From: an uncultured delta proteobacterium | GTDB lineage: Bacteria > Desulfobacterota > DSM-4660 > Desulfatiglandales > HGW-15 | Assembly (NCBI GenBank): GCA_963740905.1 | Contig: CAVUFY010000011.1 | Location: 124,926-188,925 of the forward strand | Length of the DNA: 64,000 nucleotides | Reading direction: 5' to 3' | Part shown: positions 598 through 49,679 of the stretch, piece by piece | Layout: each line of letters begins with the position of its first letter | Position numbering within the stretch: the stretch's first letter is position 1 | The notes under the pieces: model-generated | What the model was told of the DNA's origin: nothing | Database searches by the model: none | Seen by the model: only the letters and a program-made list of their open reading frames with translations | Translations under genes and position numbers: made by a program

Positions 598-611
598 TAA
601 ACCGCATTGGT

Positions 612-826
612 ATCGTGCACAGGTGTTTGCATGAAACGATTTGCGAACCAAGCTTCGCAGTGGAAGGGCTGGGGTCTCTTCTGAAGCGACCAGCGGGAGG
701 GGGCAGAACTCCCCCGTAGATAAGCCGTCGAAAAGACCAGACCGGCAGCTTCGGAGCGTAAGAAAAGGACCCAGCCTTTCCAGGTGCAGCCCTCCCTCCT
801 ATGCAAACACTTTTGAATGTTTCCAA
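612..826. repeat. Repeat family R1 (long-hairpin intergenic element), degenerate copy with mainly the right half conserved
   Basis: The core AGCGGGAGGGGGCAGAACTCCCCCGTAGATAAGCCGTCGAAAAGACC matches the copies at 29.5, 44.9 and 49.2 kb. The terminal motif ATGCAAACACTTTTGAATG is at 801-819, and its degenerate inverse (GTGTTTGCATG) is at ~624-634. Confidence 0.55.
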
Positions 827-2989: not shown

Positions 2990-3125
2990 GAGTGAGTCTC
3001 CTTCCGCAGAGCAGGATGCATCGGGGGGCCCCCCGAGGGGGAGAGGGGCTCAGGGACAAAGCCTTTTCTGGAGAGACTGGCGAGAGGGCGCCGTCTTTTC
3101 GTGATTTATCTGTAGGGGAAACATC
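2990..3125. repeat. Repeat family R1, left half plus left extension only
   Basis: GAGTCTCCTTCCGCAGAGCAGGATGCATCGGGGGGCCCCCCGAGGGGG...GGCGCCGTCTTTTCGTGATTTATCTGTAGGGGAAAC matches the left part of the 44788-45026 copy. The right arm is missing. Confidence 0.6.
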
Positions 3126-3310
3126 CCGAGCAGGCAAGAAACGCCCTGGGCACTGGAAACGGAGGAAGTGGCCGACATCTGCCGTGAGCTGCCTTAAAAT
3201 CACGGAACCCCTGCTACCGGACGTGACCAACTACGGCACCCGGGGCAGCCTGAAGCTGATCGGATCATGCCGGAAGGTGGCGGTCGGCACACCCCCAGTC
3301 CTGAGGAGGG

Positions 3311-8659: not shown

Positions 8660-8786
8660 GCAGGTTGCTCAAAAATGCCTAAGATGCAAGGCGTCCGAAA
8701 TCCTGAGGAGTGAGACGTACATATAAGTACGTCGCAACGACGAAGGATGAGGGCAACGCCGCAGATGGGCATTTTTCAGCAACCTG

Positions 8787-8787
<1 letters not shown>
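8660..8787 (-). repeat. Repeat family R2 (about 125-nt imperfect palindrome), copy a
   Basis: GCAGGTTGCTCAAAAATGCC...GACGTACATATAAGTACGTC...GGCATTTTTCAGCAACCTGC. Its reverse complement is about 80% identical by eye to 38231-38355. It abuts the pgi stop codon. Confidence 0.75.
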
Positions 8788-10428
<1,641 letters not shown>

Positions 10429-25980: not shown

Positions 25981-26050
25981 CCGGTACCAAAGGTACGACT
26001 GGCATTTGGACTGGTAAATGAGGTGAATGTTGTATTTTTGCAGTACCTGA
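25981..26050 (-). repeat. Repeat family R3, copy C (minus orientation, 128 nt upstream of the adh start)
   Basis: The reverse complement reads GGTACTGCAAAAATACAACATTCACCTCATTTACCAGTCCAAATGCCAGTCGTACCTTTGGTACCGG. Confidence 0.65.
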
Positions 26051-26197
26051 ACTGTTTCGACCTGTCTGGAATTCAAATATATCTCCTCTTTAGATTGGCC
26101 TGCGGGTGTTTTTTCTCACGCAAATACACTGTGCGCCCTATTTATCCCCGTATATGCAAATCTTACAGTGGGATTAAGGCTATATAGGAGGCTGGAA

Positions 26198-26799: not shown

Positions 26800-26875
26800 T
26801 GAACACTGTATTTGATGTACGACAAAAATACAACTTTCACCTCATTTACTTGTCCAACCACTAACACTAGTTTTG
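26800..26875 (+). repeat. Repeat family R3, copy B
   Basis: GATGTACGACAAAAATACAACTTTCACCTCATTTACTTGTCCAACCACTAACACTAG, about 109 nt upstream of the peroxiredoxin start. Confidence 0.65.
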
Positions 26876-28701: not shown

Positions 28702-29421
28702 ATGAGCGAAGAAAAGAACCCAGGGGAGGGTAATAAGCCCCAGATGGCAGCGAGCCGGAAAGGCGCAGCTATCAAGGCACTCTTTCTGGTCGCATTCGTC
28801 ATCGTGGCGATTTACATTATCCGCTTCACGTCGGCAAGGGAGTTTTTTACCGAAAAGGCCTTGAACCAGTTTCTCGATCGGGCTGGACTCTGGGCGCCTC
28901 TCGTCTTCATGCTGGTCTACACCGCAGGCGTATGTCTGTTTGTCCCCGGCACCCTGCTCACCGCCCTGGGAGCCGCTTTGTTTGGCCCTTACTGGGGATT
29001 CGTGTGTGTATGGATGGGAGCCATGGCTGGTGCCACTGCCGCTTTCTGGATCGGACGGACGCTGGGGAGAGATTTTGCCGCTTCCCTCATAGGGGAAAAA
29101 CTGAAGAAGTATGATGAGGCGATCGAGAGGAACGGATTCGCCACGGTGCTTTACTTGCGGCTGGTCTATTTCCCTTTCACCGCCATGAACTTTGGGATGG
29201 GGCTGACCAAGGTCCGGTTCCGGGATTATTTTTGGGGCACGGGTTTGGGCATTTTGGTGGGGACTTTTATTCTTACTTTTTTTATCGGCACGATTAAAGA
29301 AGTTTGGGTCGCAGGAGATTGGAGTCAGTTGATTTCTTCCAAAGTTTTTTTCTCGGTGGGTCTGTTTATTTTTTCCCTCTTCATTCCCAAAATTATTAAA
29401 AAGATAAAGAAAGAAAGTTGA
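28702..29421 (+). CDS. TVP38/TMEM64 (DedA-related, SNARE-associated) membrane protein
   Basis: VPGTLLTALGAALFGPYWGFVCVWMGAMAGATAAFWIGRTLGR...NGFATVLYLRLVYFPFTAMNFGMGLT is the family core. Confidence 0.8.
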   Translation: MSEEKNPGEGNKPQMAASRKGAAIKALFLVAFVIVAIYIIRFTSAREFFTEKALNQFLDRAGLWAPLVFMLVYTAGVCLFVPGTLLTALGAALFGPYWGFVCVWMGAMAGATAAFWIGRTLGRDFAASLIGEKLKKYDEAIERNGFATVLYLRLVYFPFTAMNFGMGLTKVRFRDYFWGTGLGILVGTFILTFFIGTIKEVWVAGDWSQLISSKVFFSVGLFIFSLFIPKIIKKIKKES

Positions 29422-29430
29422 TTTCTTGGC

Positions 29431-29722
29431 AACGTTCAGAAGAGTTTGCATGGGCTTACAAGTAGACCTCATGGGACCGGCCCAACATGGGACAGGGTTG
29501 GTACCTTTTCCGGAGTGACTGGCGGGAGGGCGCCGTATTTTCACGGTTTATCTGTGGGGGGAAACCCCTGGCCCCGAGCGCACGCGAGGGGAACAGCGGG
29601 AGGGGGCAAAACTCCCCCGCAGATAAGCCGTAGAAAAGACCCGCCCGGGAGCCCTTGGAACGAAGGAAAAGGTGGCAGCCACGTCTCTAAGCTTTGGTCC
29701 CATGCAACCACTATTGAACCTT
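29431..29722. repeat. Repeat family R1, most complete copy (about 290 nt, long imperfect hairpin with terminal inverted repeats)
   Basis: The left end is AACGTTCAGAAGAGTTTGCATGGG and the right end is CCCATGCAACCACTATTGAACC. The inner arms are TTTTCACGGTTTATCTGTGGGGGGA and TCCCCCGCAGATAAGCCGTAGAAAA. The central mini-hairpin is GGGGG-CAAAACT-CCCCC. Confidence 0.75.
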
Positions 29723-29744
29723 ACTAATTTTTTAGGAGGGGGTC

Positions 29745-31193
29745 ATGCTGGATTATGATTTTGATATCGGAATCTTGGGAGGAGGGTCGGGAGGTTTGAC
29801 GGTGGCGGCGGGAGCCGCTCAGCTGGGGGCCAAAACCCTGCTCATGGAGAAGGAAAAGCTGGGAGGGGACTGTCTGTATTTCGGCTGCGTCCCTAGCAAA
29901 ACCCTGATCCAAACCGCCCATGTCTACCATCTTATGAAAAATGCCAGGAAGTTCGGGCTTCCCGCGGTGGAAGTCAAGCCGATCGACTTCCGTGAGGTGG
30001 CCGCAAGAATTCAGTCGGTCATCCAAATCATTGAGAAGTATGACTCCGAGGAAAGGTTCTGTAAACTTGGAGTCAAAGTTGAATTCGGGAAGCCGGCCTT
30101 TGTGGATGAGCATTCCATCCGGCTGGAAGGGAAAACTTTTTCCGCCAAGAACTGGGTCATTGCCACTGGCTCTTCCCCCTCCGTTCCACCGGTAACCGGT
30201 TTGGACCAAACTCCTCACATCACCAACAAGGAAATGTATTCCTTCGAAAGATTACCGAAGTCCATGGTGATCCTTGGAGCCGGTCCGGTTGCCACGGAAA
30301 TGGCCCAGACTTTCAGTCGTCTGGGGACCGAGGTCAAGGTGATACAGCGCAGCGGCCAAATTCTGAGCAATGAAGACAAGGATATGGCTGATCAGGTCAT
30401 GAAGGTCTTGCAGACTGAAGGGGTCGAGTTCCATCTCAACACCTCGGTGGTGAGCACGAAGGATTTGGGGGACCGGAGAGAAATCGTGATTAAAAAGGGA
30501 GACGGACAAACTATTGCTCTTCATGCGGAAGTCATCCTGGTAGCCATGGGAAGAGAGGCTAACCTGAAAGGATTGAACCTGGAAGGGATCGGCATACCCT
30601 ATGATGACAAAGGCTTGAAGTTGGACCCGAGATTGAGAACGGTTCACAAACATATTTATGGAGCCGGCGATGTAACCGGAGCCTACCAGTTTACCCATGC
30701 GGCCGGATATGAGGGTTCCATCGTAGTCACTAATGCCATTTTCCATCTCCCCCGAAAGGTGAATTATACCTTCCTCCCCTGGTGTACCTTTACCGACCCG
30801 GAACTGGCAAGCATCGGGATGAACGAGAAAAGAGCCAAGGCCGAGGGCGTCGAATATGACGTATGGGTAGAAGAGTTTAAGGGCAACGACCGGAGCCTCG
30901 CCGAGGGGGAAGAGGTTGGAAAAATCAAAATGATCCTGGATAAGAAAGGAAATCCCATCGGCGTTCAGATTCTCGGCCCCCGGGCCGGGGACCTGGTGAG
31001 CGAGTGGGTTGCAGCCTTGAATGGGAACGTCAAACCCAGGACTCTGGCCGCCGCTGTACATCCCTATCCGACCCTGGGAGAGATCAATAAGAAAGTGGCC
31101 GGGACCTATCTCTCCAGTAAACTCTTCTCGGAACGAATCAGGAAAGGTCTTCATTTCTTCTTCGACCTGAAGGGTAGAGCTTGCGGAGGGTGA
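29745..31193 (+). CDS. Class I FAD-dependent pyridine nucleotide-disulfide oxidoreductase (mercuric reductase/dihydrolipoamide dehydrogenase-like)
   Basis: GILGGGSGG is the FAD site and GGDCLYFGCVPSK is the redox-active CxxxxC. The second Rossmann motif is ILGAGPVATE. The C-terminal dimerisation-domain block is HPYPTLGE. It lacks the MerA NmerA domain and the CC tail. Confidence 0.85.
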   Translation: MLDYDFDIGILGGGSGGLTVAAGAAQLGAKTLLMEKEKLGGDCLYFGCVPSKTLIQTAHVYHLMKNARKFGLPAVEVKPIDFREVAARIQSVIQIIEKYDSEERFCKLGVKVEFGKPAFVDEHSIRLEGKTFSAKNWVIATGSSPSVPPVTGLDQTPHITNKEMYSFERLPKSMVILGAGPVATEMAQTFSRLGTEVKVIQRSGQILSNEDKDMADQVMKVLQTEGVEFHLNTSVVSTKDLGDRREIVIKKGDGQTIALHAEVILVAMGREANLKGLNLEGIGIPYDDKGLKLDPRLRTVHKHIYGAGDVTGAYQFTHAAGYEGSIVVTNAIFHLPRKVNYTFLPWCTFTDPELASIGMNEKRAKAEGVEYDVWVEEFKGNDRSLAEGEEVGKIKMILDKKGNPIGVQILGPRAGDLVSEWVAALNGNVKPRTLAAAVHPYPTLGEINKKVAGTYLSSKLFSERIRKGLHFFFDLKGRACGG

Positions 31194-31282: not shown

Positions 31283-31350
31283 TTCAGCTCACGTACGACA
31301 AAAGAACAACTTTAACCCTATTTACTGGTCCAACCGCTAGCCTTATTTTC
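31283..31350 (+). repeat. Repeat family R3, copy D (more divergent)
   Basis: CACGTACGACAAAAGAACAACTTTAACCCTATTTACTGGTCCAACCGCTAGCC. Confidence 0.55.
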
Positions 31351-35507: not shown

Positions 35508-35534
35508 CCCACGCAAACACTTTTGAACGATACC
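35508..35534 (+). repeat. Solo copy of the R1 terminal motif
   Basis: CCCACGCAAACACTTTTGAACGATACC shares a 15-nt identical block GCAAACACTTTTGAA with 803-817. It lies 8 nt after the stop of the large subunit gene. Confidence 0.5.
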
Positions 35535-36524: not shown

Positions 36525-36592
36525 CTTCGTCATTCCCGCCAAAATACTATTTTCACCCCATATACCTGTTCAAATCCGCCTTGTAGCTTCGG
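36525..36592 (+). repeat. Repeat family R3, copy E (divergent), 32 nt upstream of the OMF start
   Basis: CGTCATTCCCGCCAAAATACTATTTTCACCCCATATACCTGTTCAAATCCGCCTTGTAGC. Confidence 0.5.
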
Positions 36593-36623: not shown

Positions 36624-38204
36624 ATGGCAAATCCTGACAAACTGTTTTCTGTCCTTTACGGTACTGCAGCCGTTGTAAGCGTAATGTTGTCCGGCTGCAT
36701 GGTCGGCCCCAACTTCGAGCGGCCAAATGTCACTGTTTCTCAAAACTGGATAGAGTCCGGCGATAAGAGGATCGACAATAGGGCCACGGACTACCGCAAC
36801 TGGTGGAAGACTTTCAACGACCCGGTGCTAGGCCTGCTTATTGACCGGGCATACCGCCAAAATCTCTCTCTTCAGATTGCCGGCATTCGTGTGATCGAGG
36901 CCCGCGCGCAACTTGGCATTGCCGTCGGCAACTTTTTTCCCCAGACGCAGGAGGCCAGCGGTTCTTTAGAGCATCAAAGATCGAGCAGTTCGTCGGCTCA
37001 GGCCTTTGGGCAGGTTGAATATAATCAGGATCAGATTGCAGTGAGCGCCAGTTGGGAACTGGATTTCTGGGGAAAATTCAGGCGAAGCATACAGTCGGCC
37101 GGCGCCTCATGGCTTGCGACAGCGGCCGATTACGACAACGTCTTTGTGAGCCTTGTGGCCGATGTTGCCAACGGGTATATAAACGTCAGGACCCTCGAAA
37201 AGCGCATAGATATCGCCGGCCGGAACGTGGAAACCCAGAAAGCGAGCCTGAAGATTGCCGAAGCGCGGTTTCGTTACGGCACTGTCTCACAATTGGATGT
37301 GGAGCAGGCAAAAACAGAACTCAATAACACCCTGGCTTCCATTCCTTCGCTTAAATCCCAGTTGAGGCAGCAAAAAGACGCCCTTTGCGTATTGCTGGGC
37401 ATGGCGCCGAACGATCTAGCTGATATCCTCAATGGTCCTTCGGAAATTCCTGTCTCCCCGCCCGGGGTGGTGGTGGGCATCCCCGCGGATCTCCTTCGCC
37501 GGCGTCCGGACGTGCGCAGCGCTGAATACCAGGCGGCTGCCCAATCGGCCCGGATCGGCGTGGCCAAAGCCGACCTTTATCCCGCCTTCTCTTTAATTGG
37601 AGAGTTCGGTTTTCTTTCAAGCAATGCCGGGAATTCAAACCTTGCCAATATCTTTGAGTGGAAGAGCCGCTTTTACCAGATCGGCCCCTCTTTGAGGTGG
37701 AATATTTTCAATTACGGCCAGATAACGAACAATGTTCGATTACAGGATGCCAAGCTACAGGAACTGCTTCTCGCCTATCAGAATACCGTTTTGACCGCCC
37801 AACAGGATGTGGAGGACAACCTGGCTGCCTTTCTCAAGTCTCAGGAACGCGCCGATTACCTGGCCAAAAGCACCCAAGCCGCAAAAAGCGCTCTCGACCT
37901 GGCGATCAAGCAGTATCGCCAGGGCACAAAGGATTTTACAACCGTACTGAGCGCGCAGCAGTCCCTACTGAGCGAACAGGACAGCCTGGCTTCCACGTTG
38001 GGCAACATCTCTCTAGGGCTTGTGGGAGTTTACAGGGCGATTGGCGGCGGCTGGGAATTACGCGAGGGTAAGGACCTGGTATCACCGGCCGTAATAGAGG
38101 AAATGAAAGGACGAACCAACTGGGGCGGGTTGCTGGCGCCTGCGTCATATAATCCGCAAATTACGGAAAAACCCAGTTCCTCAGTCAGGGCGCCGGATTG
38201 GTAA
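36624..38204 (+). CDS. RND efflux outer-membrane factor lipoprotein, NodT family
   Basis: The lipobox is MLSGC followed by MVGPNF. It carries WELDFWGKFRR, and two OEP repeats. Confidence 0.9.
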   Translation: MANPDKLFSVLYGTAAVVSVMLSGCMVGPNFERPNVTVSQNWIESGDKRIDNRATDYRNWWKTFNDPVLGLLIDRAYRQNLSLQIAGIRVIEARAQLGIAVGNFFPQTQEASGSLEHQRSSSSSAQAFGQVEYNQDQIAVSASWELDFWGKFRRSIQSAGASWLATAADYDNVFVSLVADVANGYINVRTLEKRIDIAGRNVETQKASLKIAEARFRYGTVSQLDVEQAKTELNNTLASIPSLKSQLRQQKDALCVLLGMAPNDLADILNGPSEIPVSPPGVVVGIPADLLRRRPDVRSAEYQAAAQSARIGVAKADLYPAFSLIGEFGFLSSNAGNSNLANIFEWKSRFYQIGPSLRWNIFNYGQITNNVRLQDAKLQELLLAYQNTVLTAQQDVEDNLAAFLKSQERADYLAKSTQAAKSALDLAIKQYRQGTKDFTTVLSAQQSLLSEQDSLASTLGNISLGLVGVYRAIGGGWELREGKDLVSPAVIEEMKGRTNWGGLLAPASYNPQITEKPSSSVRAPDW

Positions 38205-38230: not shown

Positions 38231-38355
38231 CAGGCTGCTGAAGACGCCCATCTGCGGCGTTACCCTCATTCCCCGTCATTGCGGCGTACTTCTATGTACG
38301 CCTCATTCCTGGGAATTTCGGGTGCCTTGCATCTGGACATTTTTCAGCGGCCTGC
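38231..38355 (+). repeat. Repeat family R2, copy b (between the OMF and adaptor genes)
   Basis: GCAGGCTGCTGAAGACGCCCATCTGCGGCGTTACCCTCATT...GGCGTACTTCTATGTACGCC...GGACATTTTTCAGCGGCCTGC is the reverse complement of copy a. It starts 27 nt after the OMF stop. Confidence 0.75.
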
Positions 38356-44787: not shown

Positions 44788-45026
44788 GGTGAGTCTCCTC
44801 CTGCGGAGCGGGAGGCATCGGGTGACCCCCCGAGGGGGGCTCAGGGACGAAACCTTTTCTGGAGTGCCTGGCGAGAGGGCGCTGTCTTGTCGTGATTTAT
44901 CTGTGGGGGAAACCCATGGCCCCGAGCGAAGCCGAGGGGAACAGCGGGAGGGGGCAAAACTCCCCCACAGATAAGTCACAGAAAAGACCAGCCCGGAGCC
45001 TCGGAACGCAAGAAAAGACTTCGTCC
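44788..45026. repeat. Repeat family R1, full hairpin copy with left extension
   Basis: GAGTCTCCTCCTGCGGAGCGGGAGGCATCGGGTGACCCCCCGAGGGGGG...TGTCGTGATTTATCTGTGGGGGAAAC...AGCGGGAGGGGGCAAAACTCCCCCACAGATAAGTCACAGAAAAGACC. Confidence 0.75.
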
Positions 45027-45196
45027 TTGGGCTTCACTCTTCAACACACGACGATTCCTCTAGACCCCGGATCGATAGAACCTATCCGGGTCCTCCACCA
45101 GAGGTCCCAGAGGTGGAGGATTTGGTTACAACTAAGGTCGCAAGGTAGGCTCTATGTGAGAGAAAGAGCAGGAAGAAAGAAGAAAGGAGAAAAACC

Positions 45197-46899: not shown

Positions 46900-48312
46900 A
46901 TGAACGATCTGTTGATCATCGGTGGAAGCGATGCAGGAATAAGCGCGGCCCTCCGTGCAAAGGAAGTGGATCCCTCGATGTGCGTGACCGTAATCGTGGC
47001 AGACGAATATCCAAACTACAGTATCTGCGGGCTCCCGTTTCTTCTGAGCGGCGAGGTCGAAGATTGGCGAACCCTTGCTCACCGGAGCATCGAGGAGATA
47101 GAAAGGGCTTCGGTTCGGGTTTTGCTCAACCACAAAGCCGAGGCGATTGATCCGCATGCGAAAATCATCGGGATCACAAACAGCGAGGGGCGCGATGCGG
47201 TATTGAAATACGACAGGCTTATCATCGCAACAGGGGCCGTCTCCGGCCGGCCTTCCATAGAGGGGCTGGACCTTCCAGGCGTCTTTTGTCTCCGCTGGAT
47301 GGGGGATGCTTTTTCTATCCGGGAATATGTCGCAAGATATTCTCCTGATGAGGCGATCATTCTTGGAGCAGGGTACATCGGCATGGAAATGGCCGACGCT
47401 CTGACCAGGAGAGGCATTTCGGTGACCATGTTGATTCGTTCAGGACGCGTGTTGAAAACTGTGGATAAAGAAATGGGAGAGATCATCCGGACCGAGTTGA
47501 TTAAAAAAGGCGTAAATCTGGTCGATCGGATTGATGTCACCTCCATAGAGAAACGAGGAGAGAAGCTCGTTGTGAAGAATTCTCAGGATATTCCCGTCAA
47601 AGGCGACCTTGTCCTGATCGCTGCCGGGGCAAGGCCGGAGACTGCCTTGGCTCGGAGGTCAGGGGTTTCGACCGGAATCCACGGCGCCATCAAAGTGAAC
47701 CACGCGATGGAAACCAATGTCATGGACATATACTCAGCAGGCGACTGCGCTGAGACCTGGCATCGCCTTCTTAGGAAATACACCTATCTTCCCCTGGGAA
47801 CCACAGCGCACAAACAGGGATGCGCGGCCGGGGAGAATGCGGCTGGAGGAGATGCAGAATTTGCAGGCTCTCTGAGCACCCAGGTGGTCAAGATCTTTGA
47901 TCTTGTGGTGGCGCGAACAGGATTGCTTGAGCAGGAGGCTCGGGACGCAGGCTTCGATCCTTTGAGCGTCCATCATCAGACATGGGACCATACGCCCTAC
48001 TATCCCGGAGCCACTCTTCTCCATCTCCGCATTACAGGAGATCGAAAGACGGGCAGACTCCTTGGGGGCCAGATCATCGGGCAGTACAAGGCGGAGGTAT
48101 CCAAACGTATCGATATTTTCGCCGCAGCCTTGTTCAACGAGATGACCATCAATGCGTTGAACCACCTCGATCTGAGCTATACTCCTCCCATGAGCAGCCC
48201 TTGGGACCCGGTTCAGCAAGCCGCTCAGGCATGGACATGCAAAAGAGAAGCAAATGGACAGCGTTCTCCGATAGGGACTTTCGCAAATCTAACCTTCTCG
48301 GATGCGCAGTGA
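46900..48312 (+). CDS. CoA-disulfide reductase/NADH oxidase-family FAD-dependent oxidoreductase
   Basis: IIGGSDAG is the FAD site. The single redox Cys lies in PNYSICGLPF. The second Rossmann motif is ILGAGYIGMEMA, and GDC is also present. Confidence 0.85.
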   Translation: MNDLLIIGGSDAGISAALRAKEVDPSMCVTVIVADEYPNYSICGLPFLLSGEVEDWRTLAHRSIEEIERASVRVLLNHKAEAIDPHAKIIGITNSEGRDAVLKYDRLIIATGAVSGRPSIEGLDLPGVFCLRWMGDAFSIREYVARYSPDEAIILGAGYIGMEMADALTRRGISVTMLIRSGRVLKTVDKEMGEIIRTELIKKGVNLVDRIDVTSIEKRGEKLVVKNSQDIPVKGDLVLIAAGARPETALARRSGVSTGIHGAIKVNHAMETNVMDIYSAGDCAETWHRLLRKYTYLPLGTTAHKQGCAAGENAAGGDAEFAGSLSTQVVKIFDLVVARTGLLEQEARDAGFDPLSVHHQTWDHTPYYPGATLLHLRITGDRKTGRLLGGQIIGQYKAEVSKRIDIFAAALFNEMTINALNHLDLSYTPPMSSPWDPVQQAAQAWTCKREANGQRSPIGTFANLTFSDAQ

Positions 48313-48329
48313 AGTGGCGCTCGGAGGGA

Positions 48330-48905
48330 TTAGCCCTTTTTTAGAATCACGGCCTTGCTAAGAAATACTTTCGGCCTGTCAACAGCCATCAAGCCGGCAT
48401 TGCGGGCTATACTGATGGTCTGTTCAAACGCAGCCTTGGAGACATGGAATGGTGGCTCTACAATGAGAACCCGCCCGGTCGGGTTGAGTATTGATTCTAT
48501 GTCTCTAAAAAATTCATTCTGGTCCGGGACTTCGTGAACCATGTAAAAAGCGAGGACAAAATCTACATTTTGGGACACGCCTATTTTGTTCTTTTGGCAC
48601 CTATGCAATGTGATACGTTCCTCAAGGTCGGATCCTCTAATTTTGTTTCTTAATCTCTGAAGCATTCCGTCTTGAAGATCAGCAGCGATGACCCGCCCCG
48701 ATTTGCCGACCATCCTTGCGATGTCGACGGTGAAGTAGCCGGAACCACATCCGAAATCCAGGACCGTCATCCCTTCTTTAATGTATGGGCCGAGTATTTT
48801 TCGAGGGTTTTGCAGCCATCCCCGGAACTTGTTGTCAAGACTGCCTGCCATTTCAACCGGGCACACACGATTTCTTCCATCACCCATCTTCTTCTCTCCT
48901 TTCAA
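48330..48905 (-). CDS. Class I SAM-dependent methyltransferase
   Basis: VLDFGCGSGYFT is motif I, followed by VIAADLQ. An alternative start is at 48887. Confidence 0.8.
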   Translation of the reverse strand: MKGEKKMGDGRNRVCPVEMAGSLDNKFRGWLQNPRKILGPYIKEGMTVLDFGCGSGYFTVDIARMVGKSGRVIAADLQDGMLQRLRNKIRGSDLEERITLHRCQKNKIGVSQNVDFVLAFYMVHEVPDQNEFFRDIESILNPTGRVLIVEPPFHVSKAAFEQTISIARNAGLMAVDRPKVFLSKAVILKKG

Positions 48906-49103
48906 AGCCGAACAGCCCGCTTAACCGGCTGAGCAAAGCTGGGCCAGTTCACCTCACTGTTCGCCATCCTACTCAGATAAACCTACAACCTCCTCGAATT
49001 AGAACTCCTGCAAATATCGAGCATGTTCCCGTTGAGTCGGTCGATGTGTGACTGATCCTGTATGCGGGAATTGTATCATATTAGCTGTTTCTAGTAGCCG
49101 TGA

Positions 49104-49292
49104 GGATCATGATTCTCTTTCTTGAGTGACTGGCGGAAAGGCGCCGTCTTTTCACGGTTTATCTATGGGGGAAACCCCTGGCTCCGAGCGAAGGCGAGGA
49201 GAACAGCGGGAGGGGGCAAAACTCCCCCGTAGATAAACCGTAGAAAAGACCAACCTGCGAGCCTCGGAACGGGAGAAAGGGAATCATGATCC
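49104..49292. repeat. Repeat family R1, compact near-perfect hairpin copy
   Basis: GGATCATGATTCTCTTTC...GTCTTTTCACGGTTTATCTATGGGGGAAAC...GGGGGCAAAACTCCCCCGTAGATAAACCGTAGAAAAGAC...GAGAAAGGGAATCATGATCC. Confidence 0.8.
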
Positions 49293-49679
49293 TTACCATA
49301 ATTACATAGAGCTAAAATGATGCCGGGAATTGAGGTTCTGTCAGGCGGTGGTTTGATAACCCGCTAGCAGGTCCTTATGGGTAGGCAAATGACCACACAG
49401 AATCACATCAACATTTTCTGAATAAAAAGGCAAAGAGGTTGTTTTGTCAAGCCAGATCCAGGTAAAGCTTCTATGAGACTTTGTCTAAACTCGTGGGATT
49501 AAGATTCCAGGATGTTTCCTGACAAGTCTTGATGGATGGTGGGAAACGTTGAAGGGTTTTCCATGCATGGAGGAAAGTCAAGATTAGGATGAAGTGGCCC
49601 AAGGATTCATAATACAAAGATTTCTGCTTCGCAGGATATTTCCTTCACTCTCCTTTCACGAGCCCCAAAACGCCTTTTC

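Follow-up and report, generated by a model that had tools for sequence, protein, structure and literature searches.

Intergenic hairpin repeats of a Desulfatiglandales-like genome as probable miniature transposable elements, one type of which carries the ends of an ISH6-family insertion sequence

What are the long hairpins that recur between the genes of an uncultured delta proteobacterium, and how did they come to lie there? The question arises from a stretch of 64,000 nt (contig CAVUFY010000011.1 of assembly GCA_963740905.1, positions 124,926 to 188,925 of the forward strand; hereafter the window), in which a repeat called R1 is present as five copies, c1 to c5, and one solo end. A first-pass annotation had seen in R1 either a mobile hairpin, comparable to a miniature inverted-repeat transposable element (MITE) or to a REP sequence, or a structured RNA. 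It now seems, with a probability of about 0.9, that R1 is a MITE family of a Desulfatiglandales-like genome, and that its c3 type has its terminal inverted repeats in common with an insertion sequence (IS) of the ISH6 family, 1.48 kb long, by which it is served in trans. MITEs are widespread as selfish DNA; what is unusual in R1 is how well the inner hairpin has been kept. The MITE half of the earlier suggestion is thus upheld by terminal inverted repeats, 8-bp target duplications, deletion derivatives, an empty site for c3 and an IS with the same termini, and since the duplications, the repeats shared with the IS, the derivatives and the empty orthologous site all go with insertion, the elements are inserted DNA.

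The insertion event can be followed at c3, a complete plus strand MITE of 298 bp (29428-29725) with paired terminal repeats of the ISH6 type, here called B-type. The left repeat (29428-29453, plus strand) reads GGCAACGTTCAGAAGAGTTTGCATGG and the right one (29700-29725, minus strand) has the reverse complement AGTAAGGTTCAATAGTGGTTGCATGG, and these differ at 4 and 5 positions from the 26-bp terminal repeat GGTAACGTTCAAAAGTGTTTGCACGG of the IS described below. Immediately to the right lies the 8-bp duplication AATTTTTT (29726-29733), which fits an AAnnnnTT target consensus and directly precedes the AGGAGG ribosome-binding site that serves the gene at 29745; the left copy GATTTCTT (29420-29427) has decayed and agrees with it at 6 of 8 positions. 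The element fills a gap of 323 nt, on one side of which is a VTT-domain gene and on the other a gene for a pyridine-nucleotide disulfide oxidoreductase. The same pair of genes is adjacent in three orthologous contigs, L206, L207 and L209. At protein identities of 90%, 88% and 80%, only 17, 95 and 54 nt separate the two genes and there is no element between them; in L207, the closest of the three contigs, one AATTTTTT stands exactly where c3 is inserted in the window, followed by AGGAGG. Two annotation matters belong to this locus. A 93-aa open reading frame (ORF) with a TTG start (29446-29727) lies entirely within c3 and is almost certainly spurious, and the orthologues that come closest to the downstream oxidoreductase have annotations 9-30 aa longer than the others, which may be N-terminal over-extensions.

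Which enzyme could have moved such an element? When metagenomes were scanned with the B-type end, more than 120 stretches came back, among them two with inverted matches about 1.46 kb apart, and a full-length IS of 1483 bp could be delimited at L162:375-1857. Its terminal repeat, GGTAACGTTCAAAAGTGTTTGCACGG, is perfect over 26 bp, and its 8-bp target duplication reads AATCAATT. Four further loci (L091, L122, L167 and L197) bring the full-length 1.48-kb ISs with identical terminal repeats to five, and further complete copies stand in ordinary chromosomal contexts in two metagenome-assembled genomes (MAGs). The IS at L162 has one ORF of 457-470 aa, the stop codon of which falls within the right repeat (TGC AAA CAC TTT TGA). 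The inverted motifs ATGCAAAC..TTGAA that the first-pass annotation had noticed at the ends of the longest copies are IS terminal repeats, which in the IS take in the last codons of the transposase gene. The ORF matches the NCBIfam equivalog model NF041731, ISH6 family transposase, along the whole profile (positions 1-414 of 414), with E = 1.7e-137 and 458.6 bits against a cutoff of 240, and no Pfam model matches it. A full-length IS of the kind that the first-pass annotation proposed to look for in the genome thus exists in metagenome data and encodes an ISH6-family transposase. IS66 and IS256, families first suggested by the GTA tips and the 8-bp duplication, were dropped once an IS with identical termini was seen to encode this enzyme. 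At least 967 homologues of the transposase are present in public data; the best 120 of these are at least 80% identical and have no Pfam hit, and those with a named source are labelled hypothetical. Among the homologues, which include P0001-P0120, L218:9900-11381 and L219:9900-11381, many lie on contigs of about 1.5 kb, as is typical of collapsed repeats.

Among the Mutator-like DDE transposases of prokaryotes the ISH6 family makes up the clade p-MULT 2 (PMC3942029), and it is described as rare and mostly archaeal (PMC9208149). Its one described bacterial member is ISDesp5 of an uncultured Desulfobacterium sp. (Guerillot et al. 2014, PMC3942029), in which the repeats have the tip GGTAGCGT and the duplication, also of 8 bp, reads AAAATCTT. 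The partner IS resembles the family in having one ORF with a full-length match to the family model and in giving 8-bp direct repeats at an AT-rich AA....TT target, and it resembles ISDesp5 in a host lineage within the Deltaproteobacteria/Desulfobacterota. Its repeat tip is GGTAACGT as compared with GGTAGCGT in ISDesp5, and it is 1483 bp long with an ORF of 457-470 aa, whereas ISDesp5 has 1645 bp and an ORF of 409 aa. Unlike the ISs of the family, the window has only non-autonomous derivatives of 216-298 bp, and in the literature found on the ISH6 family there is no mention of MITEs.

The family extends well beyond the window, as a single scan of 185,579 species-representative genomes with a 21-nt piece of the R1 core indicates. 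The scan returned 85 stretches, all of which come from about ten MAGs with the exception of two obvious chance matches (L034 and L081). These MAGs are labelled Desulfatiglandales, Deltaproteobacteria or Desulfobacteraceae, and carry up to about 35 copies (Ww165), with about 15 each in Bins.026 and Meg22_1214_Bin_272. The copy count called for at the outset therefore comes to dozens of core copies in other Desulfatiglandales or 'Deltaproteobacteria' MAGs. Many of them sit at contig ends, as one would expect of near-identical dispersed repeats, which break assemblies.

It is in these genomes that the element ends are seen most sharply. In Bins.026 fifteen near-identical copies of 245 bp lose similarity at the same bases, ending in GTATGAATTTAGCCC and GGGCTAAAGTGTTAC and flanked by 8-bp duplications; they begin GTATGAATTTAGCCCTTT and finish AAAGGGCTAAAGTGTTAC, which together make an imperfect terminal inverted repeat, and the duplications are AT-rich (AAAAAATG, GTTTTTAT, GAAAATGA, TATTTTTT and GAATATTC are examples). 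Two kinds of terminal repeat recur across the loci surveyed: the B-type, GGTAWCGTTCAAAAGTGTTTGCATGG, carried in the window by c3, c1 and the solo end, and an A-type, GTAWSAnTTTAGCyS, with tips GTAWCA...TTAGC, represented in the window by c5 and in Bins.026 by the fifteen copies just described. Elements with two B-type ends have a duplication that agrees at all eight positions in 24 of 56 cases and at seven in 12 more, and a perfect 8-bp duplication flanks 14 of the 29 A-type elements. Target-site duplications, the search for which had been suggested as a check, are thus present both outside the window and within it (8/8 for c5, 6/8 for c3 and 5/8 for c1). Across the 36 B-type elements the duplication has A at the first two positions (33/36 each), four variable positions, and then T (33/36) and T (29/36). 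This is in agreement with the direct-repeat consensus published for the ISH6 family, AANATNTT, and with the duplication of ISDesp5 (PMC3942029), the inner A/T positions being less conserved in the present elements. Elements measure 216-298 bp in the window and typically 245-339 bp elsewhere, and internally deleted copies without the core, of 46 bp (L017), 76 bp (L012), 131 bp (L066) and 144 bp (L007), retain termini and duplications. The L007 deletion lies between two ATGCCT repeats.

Such ends bear directly on whether R1 could be a set of palindromes like the repetitive extragenic palindromes (REPs) or bacterial interspersed mosaic elements (BIMEs), spread by a REP-associated tyrosine transposase (RAYT, or TnpA-REP), or else elements of the IS200/IS605 type associated with palindromes. 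REPs are 20-40 nt long, lack a flanking target duplication and depend for their movement on Y1 (HUH) enzymes, and IS200/IS605 derivatives make no target duplication. R1 is intergenic, palindromic, multicopy and dense, as REP/BIME sequences are, but its units are of 245-300 bp, have terminal inverted repeats of 24-26 bp and 8-bp duplications, and end in termini that belong to a DDE-type IS. An IS200/IS605-type element or an omega-RNA end would have no duplication, hairpins in subterminal and not terminal position, and TnpA(Y1)/TnpB partners; R1 has 8-bp duplications, true terminal inverted repeats and a DDE partner. Element size and target duplications hence speak against the REP-like mobile hairpin once proposed, and of all the readings weighed here this one has the smallest chance of being right.

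An nhmmer search of the window, with a profile drawn from 21 diverse copies, gives exactly five matches to the core, all of them on the plus strand. The core motif GGGAGGGGGCARAACTCCCCC occurs four times with 0 expected, the end motif ATGCAAACACTTTTGAA five times at up to 3 mismatches with 0.13 expected, and repeat detection on the window recovers R1 as families D1-D3, D5 and D6. Motif counts and profile search together confirm all six occurrences in the first-pass annotation, five copies and a solo end. Its positions hold and its boundaries shift a little: c3, given as 29431-29722, becomes 29428-29725 and c5, given as 49104-49292, becomes 49073-49323, the earlier c5 span having left out the terminal repeats and the perfect 8-bp duplication. 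The conserved core of c3, a hairpin of about 170 nt on the plus strand, occupies 29501-29671 (E = 4.6e-50). Copy c5 (plus strand, 251 bp) is likewise a complete MITE, with the A-type termini GTATCATATTAGCTGT... and ...AGAGCTAAAATGATGC, a core at 49113-49280 and CGGGAATT on both sides (49065-49072 and 49324-49331); it lies between two minus-strand genes, so that its core is antisense to local transcription. Copy c1 (609-824, plus strand, 216 bp) is a B-type MITE with both end motifs but without the left half of the core, the right half being at 679-767, and its 8-bp flanks, ACCGCATT and AAGGAATT, agree at 5 of 8 positions, a degree of divergence that indicates an old insertion. Copy c2 (2992-3132, plus strand) is a truncated remnant made up of a left module (GTGAGTCTCC...) and the left half of the core (3061-3132), and so half copies do exist, as had been said. 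The same left module precedes the full core (44852-45016) of c4 (about 44789-45026, plus strand) and recurs in L064 and L191; no target duplication was recognised for c4 or for c2. The solo right terminal repeat (35508-35534, minus strand; the reverse complement of 35513-35534 is GGTATCGTTCAAAAGTGTTTGC) starts 8 nt past the stop codon of a molybdopterin oxidoreductase gene. Gene context bears out that every copy is intergenic, and the functions of the flanking genes are unrelated. To the right of c4 the sequence at 45060-45135 (CCCCGGATCGATAGAACCTATCCGGGTCC...GGTTACAACTAAGG) recurs beside core copies in L032 and L064, two loci of another MAG, and points to a larger composite element or to one more repeated module.

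How these copies might have arisen can be put as follows. The MITEs encode nothing, and a full-length IS elsewhere would provide, in trans, a transposase that recognises both terminal repeats and inserts the element at AT-rich AAnnnnTT sites by an 8-bp staggered cut, the repair of which would leave the 8-bp direct duplication. Sites of this type would be frequent in intergenic spacers and just upstream of ribosome-binding sites, and this would be why all copies are intergenic. Old copies would then decay into half copies (c1 and c2), copies that have lost their tips (c4) and solo ends such as that at 35508-35534. Copy c5 would be a sister type, with other tips and the same length of duplication, presumably moved by a related transposase. 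That the elements are mobilised in trans, that they are active in this genome today and that the A-type copies have a partner are points that we infer.

Several observations weigh against this account of R1 as ISH6-served MITEs. The earlier statement that the window has no transposase stands as far as a cognate one is concerned, tblastn finding none in the window, nor in the 8-kb MAG loci around the copies. The IS and the MITE have only the terminal repeat of about 26 bp in common, and no A-type partner IS for c5 appeared among the loci surveyed; a scan of viral contigs for such a partner gave 8 single matches, about the number estimated for chance. The duplications of c3 and c1 have decayed to 6/8 and 5/8, and these two copies are probably old and may be immobile. 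Termini were looked for in c2 and c4 and none were recognised. The core, as the interior of the element, is more conserved than the subterminal regions, and the same core occurs in an E-type frame with another terminal repeat, CRGGCTGTTGCCCAAAT, and a 4-bp TTRA duplication; a conserved interior in frames with unrelated termini makes simple internal deletion of one IS inadequate as an origin.

What, then, is the core? The predicted plus-strand fold of 29431-29722 is a rod of -136.7 kcal/mol (z = -5.25), and the minus strand gives -113 kcal/mol (z = -2.07). Among the 21 diverse copies 96.7% of the cells of the core hairpin are paired. Compensatory double changes affect 17 of 52 pairs, in 60 cells, where shuffling gives a mean of 17 cells, none of 500 shuffles reaches the observed value and slid-register controls give at most 9 cells. 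The apical stem exists in at least four different sequences, all still self-complementary. RNAalifold scores the core at -69.4 kcal/mol with 52 pairs on the plus strand as against -41.4 kcal/mol with 34 pairs on the minus strand, and the plus strand is the more stable one in 81 of 82 distinct copies, by a mean of 11 kcal/mol. The covariation called for when the copies were first described is therefore strong, and the hairpin itself may for that reason have a function; a selected role of the inner hairpin as RNA or as single-stranded DNA (ssDNA) is a possible reading of these alignments. Since the sequences are related copies, covariation is not proof of RNA function. The strand asymmetry was also considered as proof of RNA, an argument weakened by unrelated hairpin MITEs of about 293 bp with the same ISH6 ends, which have asymmetries of 2-18 kcal/mol.

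A strong and covarying fold, together with the placing of all five window copies on the plus strand and of four of them upstream of plus-strand genes, might suggest that the copies are not mobile DNA at all, but a free-standing structured non-coding RNA or a cis-regulatory RNA, such as a leader or something riboswitch-like, for the downstream genes. The duplications, the IS-shared repeats, the deletion derivatives and the empty site contradict this. Moreover c5 is antisense to both neighbours, and the genes downstream of the window copies (for a glycosyl hydrolase, a HAD hydrolase, a disulfide oxidoreductase and a pirin) are unrelated. Orientation across the loci of the 85-stretch scan is random, the core having the same direction as both neighbouring genes 13 times, the opposite direction to both 16 times and a mixed arrangement 14 times. 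Rfam gives 0 matches for the whole window at gathering thresholds, and only rli33 (E = 3) for 29380-29780 at E <= 10. A cis-regulatory leader or riboswitch was rejected on the random orientation and the unrelated neighbours, and with the addition of the Rfam result the structured RNA of the first suggestion, taken as free-standing or cis-regulatory, finds no support; that the copies are RNA genes or leaders has become very improbable.

Less improbable, though still doubtful, is that R1 is a MITE family in which the core of about 170 nt travels as a passenger module under selection of its own, its plus strand acting as a structured RNA or ssDNA fold that has been repeatedly packaged in frames with different termini, to the benefit of the element (in transposition, stability or escape from host control) or of the host. 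The compensatory changes that maintain the hairpin, the several versions of its apical stem, all pairing, and the greater stability of the plus strand in nearly every copy would go with this, as would the distribution of the core. It is found in A-type and B-type frames, both with 8-bp duplications, in a frame specific to Ww165, and in E-type MITEs (L007:1474-1617, L010:311-577, L019:1807-2103, L053:961-1256 and L085:5724-6021), whose termini and 4-bp duplications point to a different transposase family. It is also inverted relative to the asymmetric subterminal frame in 4 of the 15 Bins.026 copies (L031, L042, L066 and L075, as compared with L017, L029, L033 and others), with breakpoints within a 20-bp inverted repeat, GGAAATCATGCWCCCTTTCT. 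Against a passenger RNA stand the random orientation of the core with respect to host transcription, the lack of any sigma-70-like promoter site in or around c3 and of a convincing Rfam match even at E <= 10, and the asymmetry of unrelated MITEs with the same terminal inverted repeats. The copies also share descent. Inheritance, or else recombination between the arms, may account for the strand asymmetry and for some of the covariation. A narrower version, in which the core is a selected, strand-specific RNA or ssDNA cargo that is able to invert and is exchanged among MITE frames of at least two unrelated transposases (ISH6-type with 8 bp, CRGGCTGTTGCCCAAAT-type with 4 bp), is a little less likely again.

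The simplest explanation for the inversion of the core is recombination between the arms, a process that could make the arms more alike as well, and nested insertion followed by amplification of the composites is the ordinary explanation for a core in several frames. Candidates for what keeps the core are a DNA or RNA fold that aids the spread or the tolerance of the element, and arm-to-arm recombination or gene conversion. Two origins of the core were considered and rejected: derivation from the interior of the IS, since none of the five full-length ISs gives an nhmmer match to the core, and an independent element inserted into empty MITE frames, since the short core-less copies are internal-deletion derivatives. 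No core lies within 10 kb of the two chromosomal IS copies. About half of the B-type MITEs hold other interiors. In the metagenome loci ISH6-type ends also frame an unrelated family of long-hairpin MITEs of about 293 bp with the interior GGGGATATCT...GGCTAAGAATTCGAGG (L105, L114, L119, L127, L185, L100 and others), as well as larger composites of 420-575 bp.

The window has other repeats besides R1. A motif of about 50 nt, AAAATACAAnnTTCACCTCATTTACTnGTCCAA (D4, I3, I4), recurs at 2915-2971, 26817-26873, 31293-31349 and 36533-36589 on the plus strand and, inverted, at 25990-26051, each copy being upstream of a gene start and in the orientation of that gene; it resembles a promoter or operator motif that these genes share. 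A 94-nt inverted repeat (8682-8775 and 38241-38334; I1, D11) is 83% complementary, and its arms are just downstream of ORFs of about 526 aa (8787-10370 on the minus strand and 36624-38204 on the plus strand); the arms may be the conserved tails of paralogous genes. Cumulative GC skew peaks at about 47000-48500, where gene orientation turns from mostly plus to mostly minus.

Among the known systems that come close to R1 are other hairpin MITEs of bacteria. The Correia elements of Neisseria and the enterobacterial intergenic repeats known as ERIC are short, intergenic and multicopy hairpin MITEs with terminal inverted repeats and target duplications, are often found beside gene starts, and as whole elements can form a long hairpin when transcribed. 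R1 is likewise short, intergenic, multicopy and hairpin-forming. It has no sequence kinship with them, differs in the transposase family and in the length of the duplication (8 bp), and has an interior that exceeds its subterminal parts in conservation and turns up in frames whose termini differ. Like the Pack-MULEs and the non-autonomous Mutator-like elements, R1 combines termini of the Mutator superfamily with an unrelated interior; Pack-MULEs, however, are eukaryotic and carry fragments of host genes, and for the R1 core no host source gene was found. A parallel with Mutator-like elements has also been drawn for the insertion preference for the 5' ends of genes (PMC3942029).

The conserved and covarying core, shared by MITEs with unrelated ends, is potentially the only surprising aspect of R1, and if the cargo reading were true it would make the core a bacterial 'pack-MITE' with a functional RNA module. 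For annotation the consequence is that R1 repeats should be masked as MITEs and not called ORFs (such as that at 29446-29727) or RNA genes, and they account for assembly breaks in related MAGs. For the ISH6 family it means an abundant and unannotated bacterial branch that is the source of prolific hairpin MITEs in sediment Desulfobacterota. And for the organisms, since the insertions lie directly upstream of ribosome-binding sites, and c3 splits genes that stand only 17-95 nt apart in relatives, R1 may alter operon expression or the stability of mRNA.

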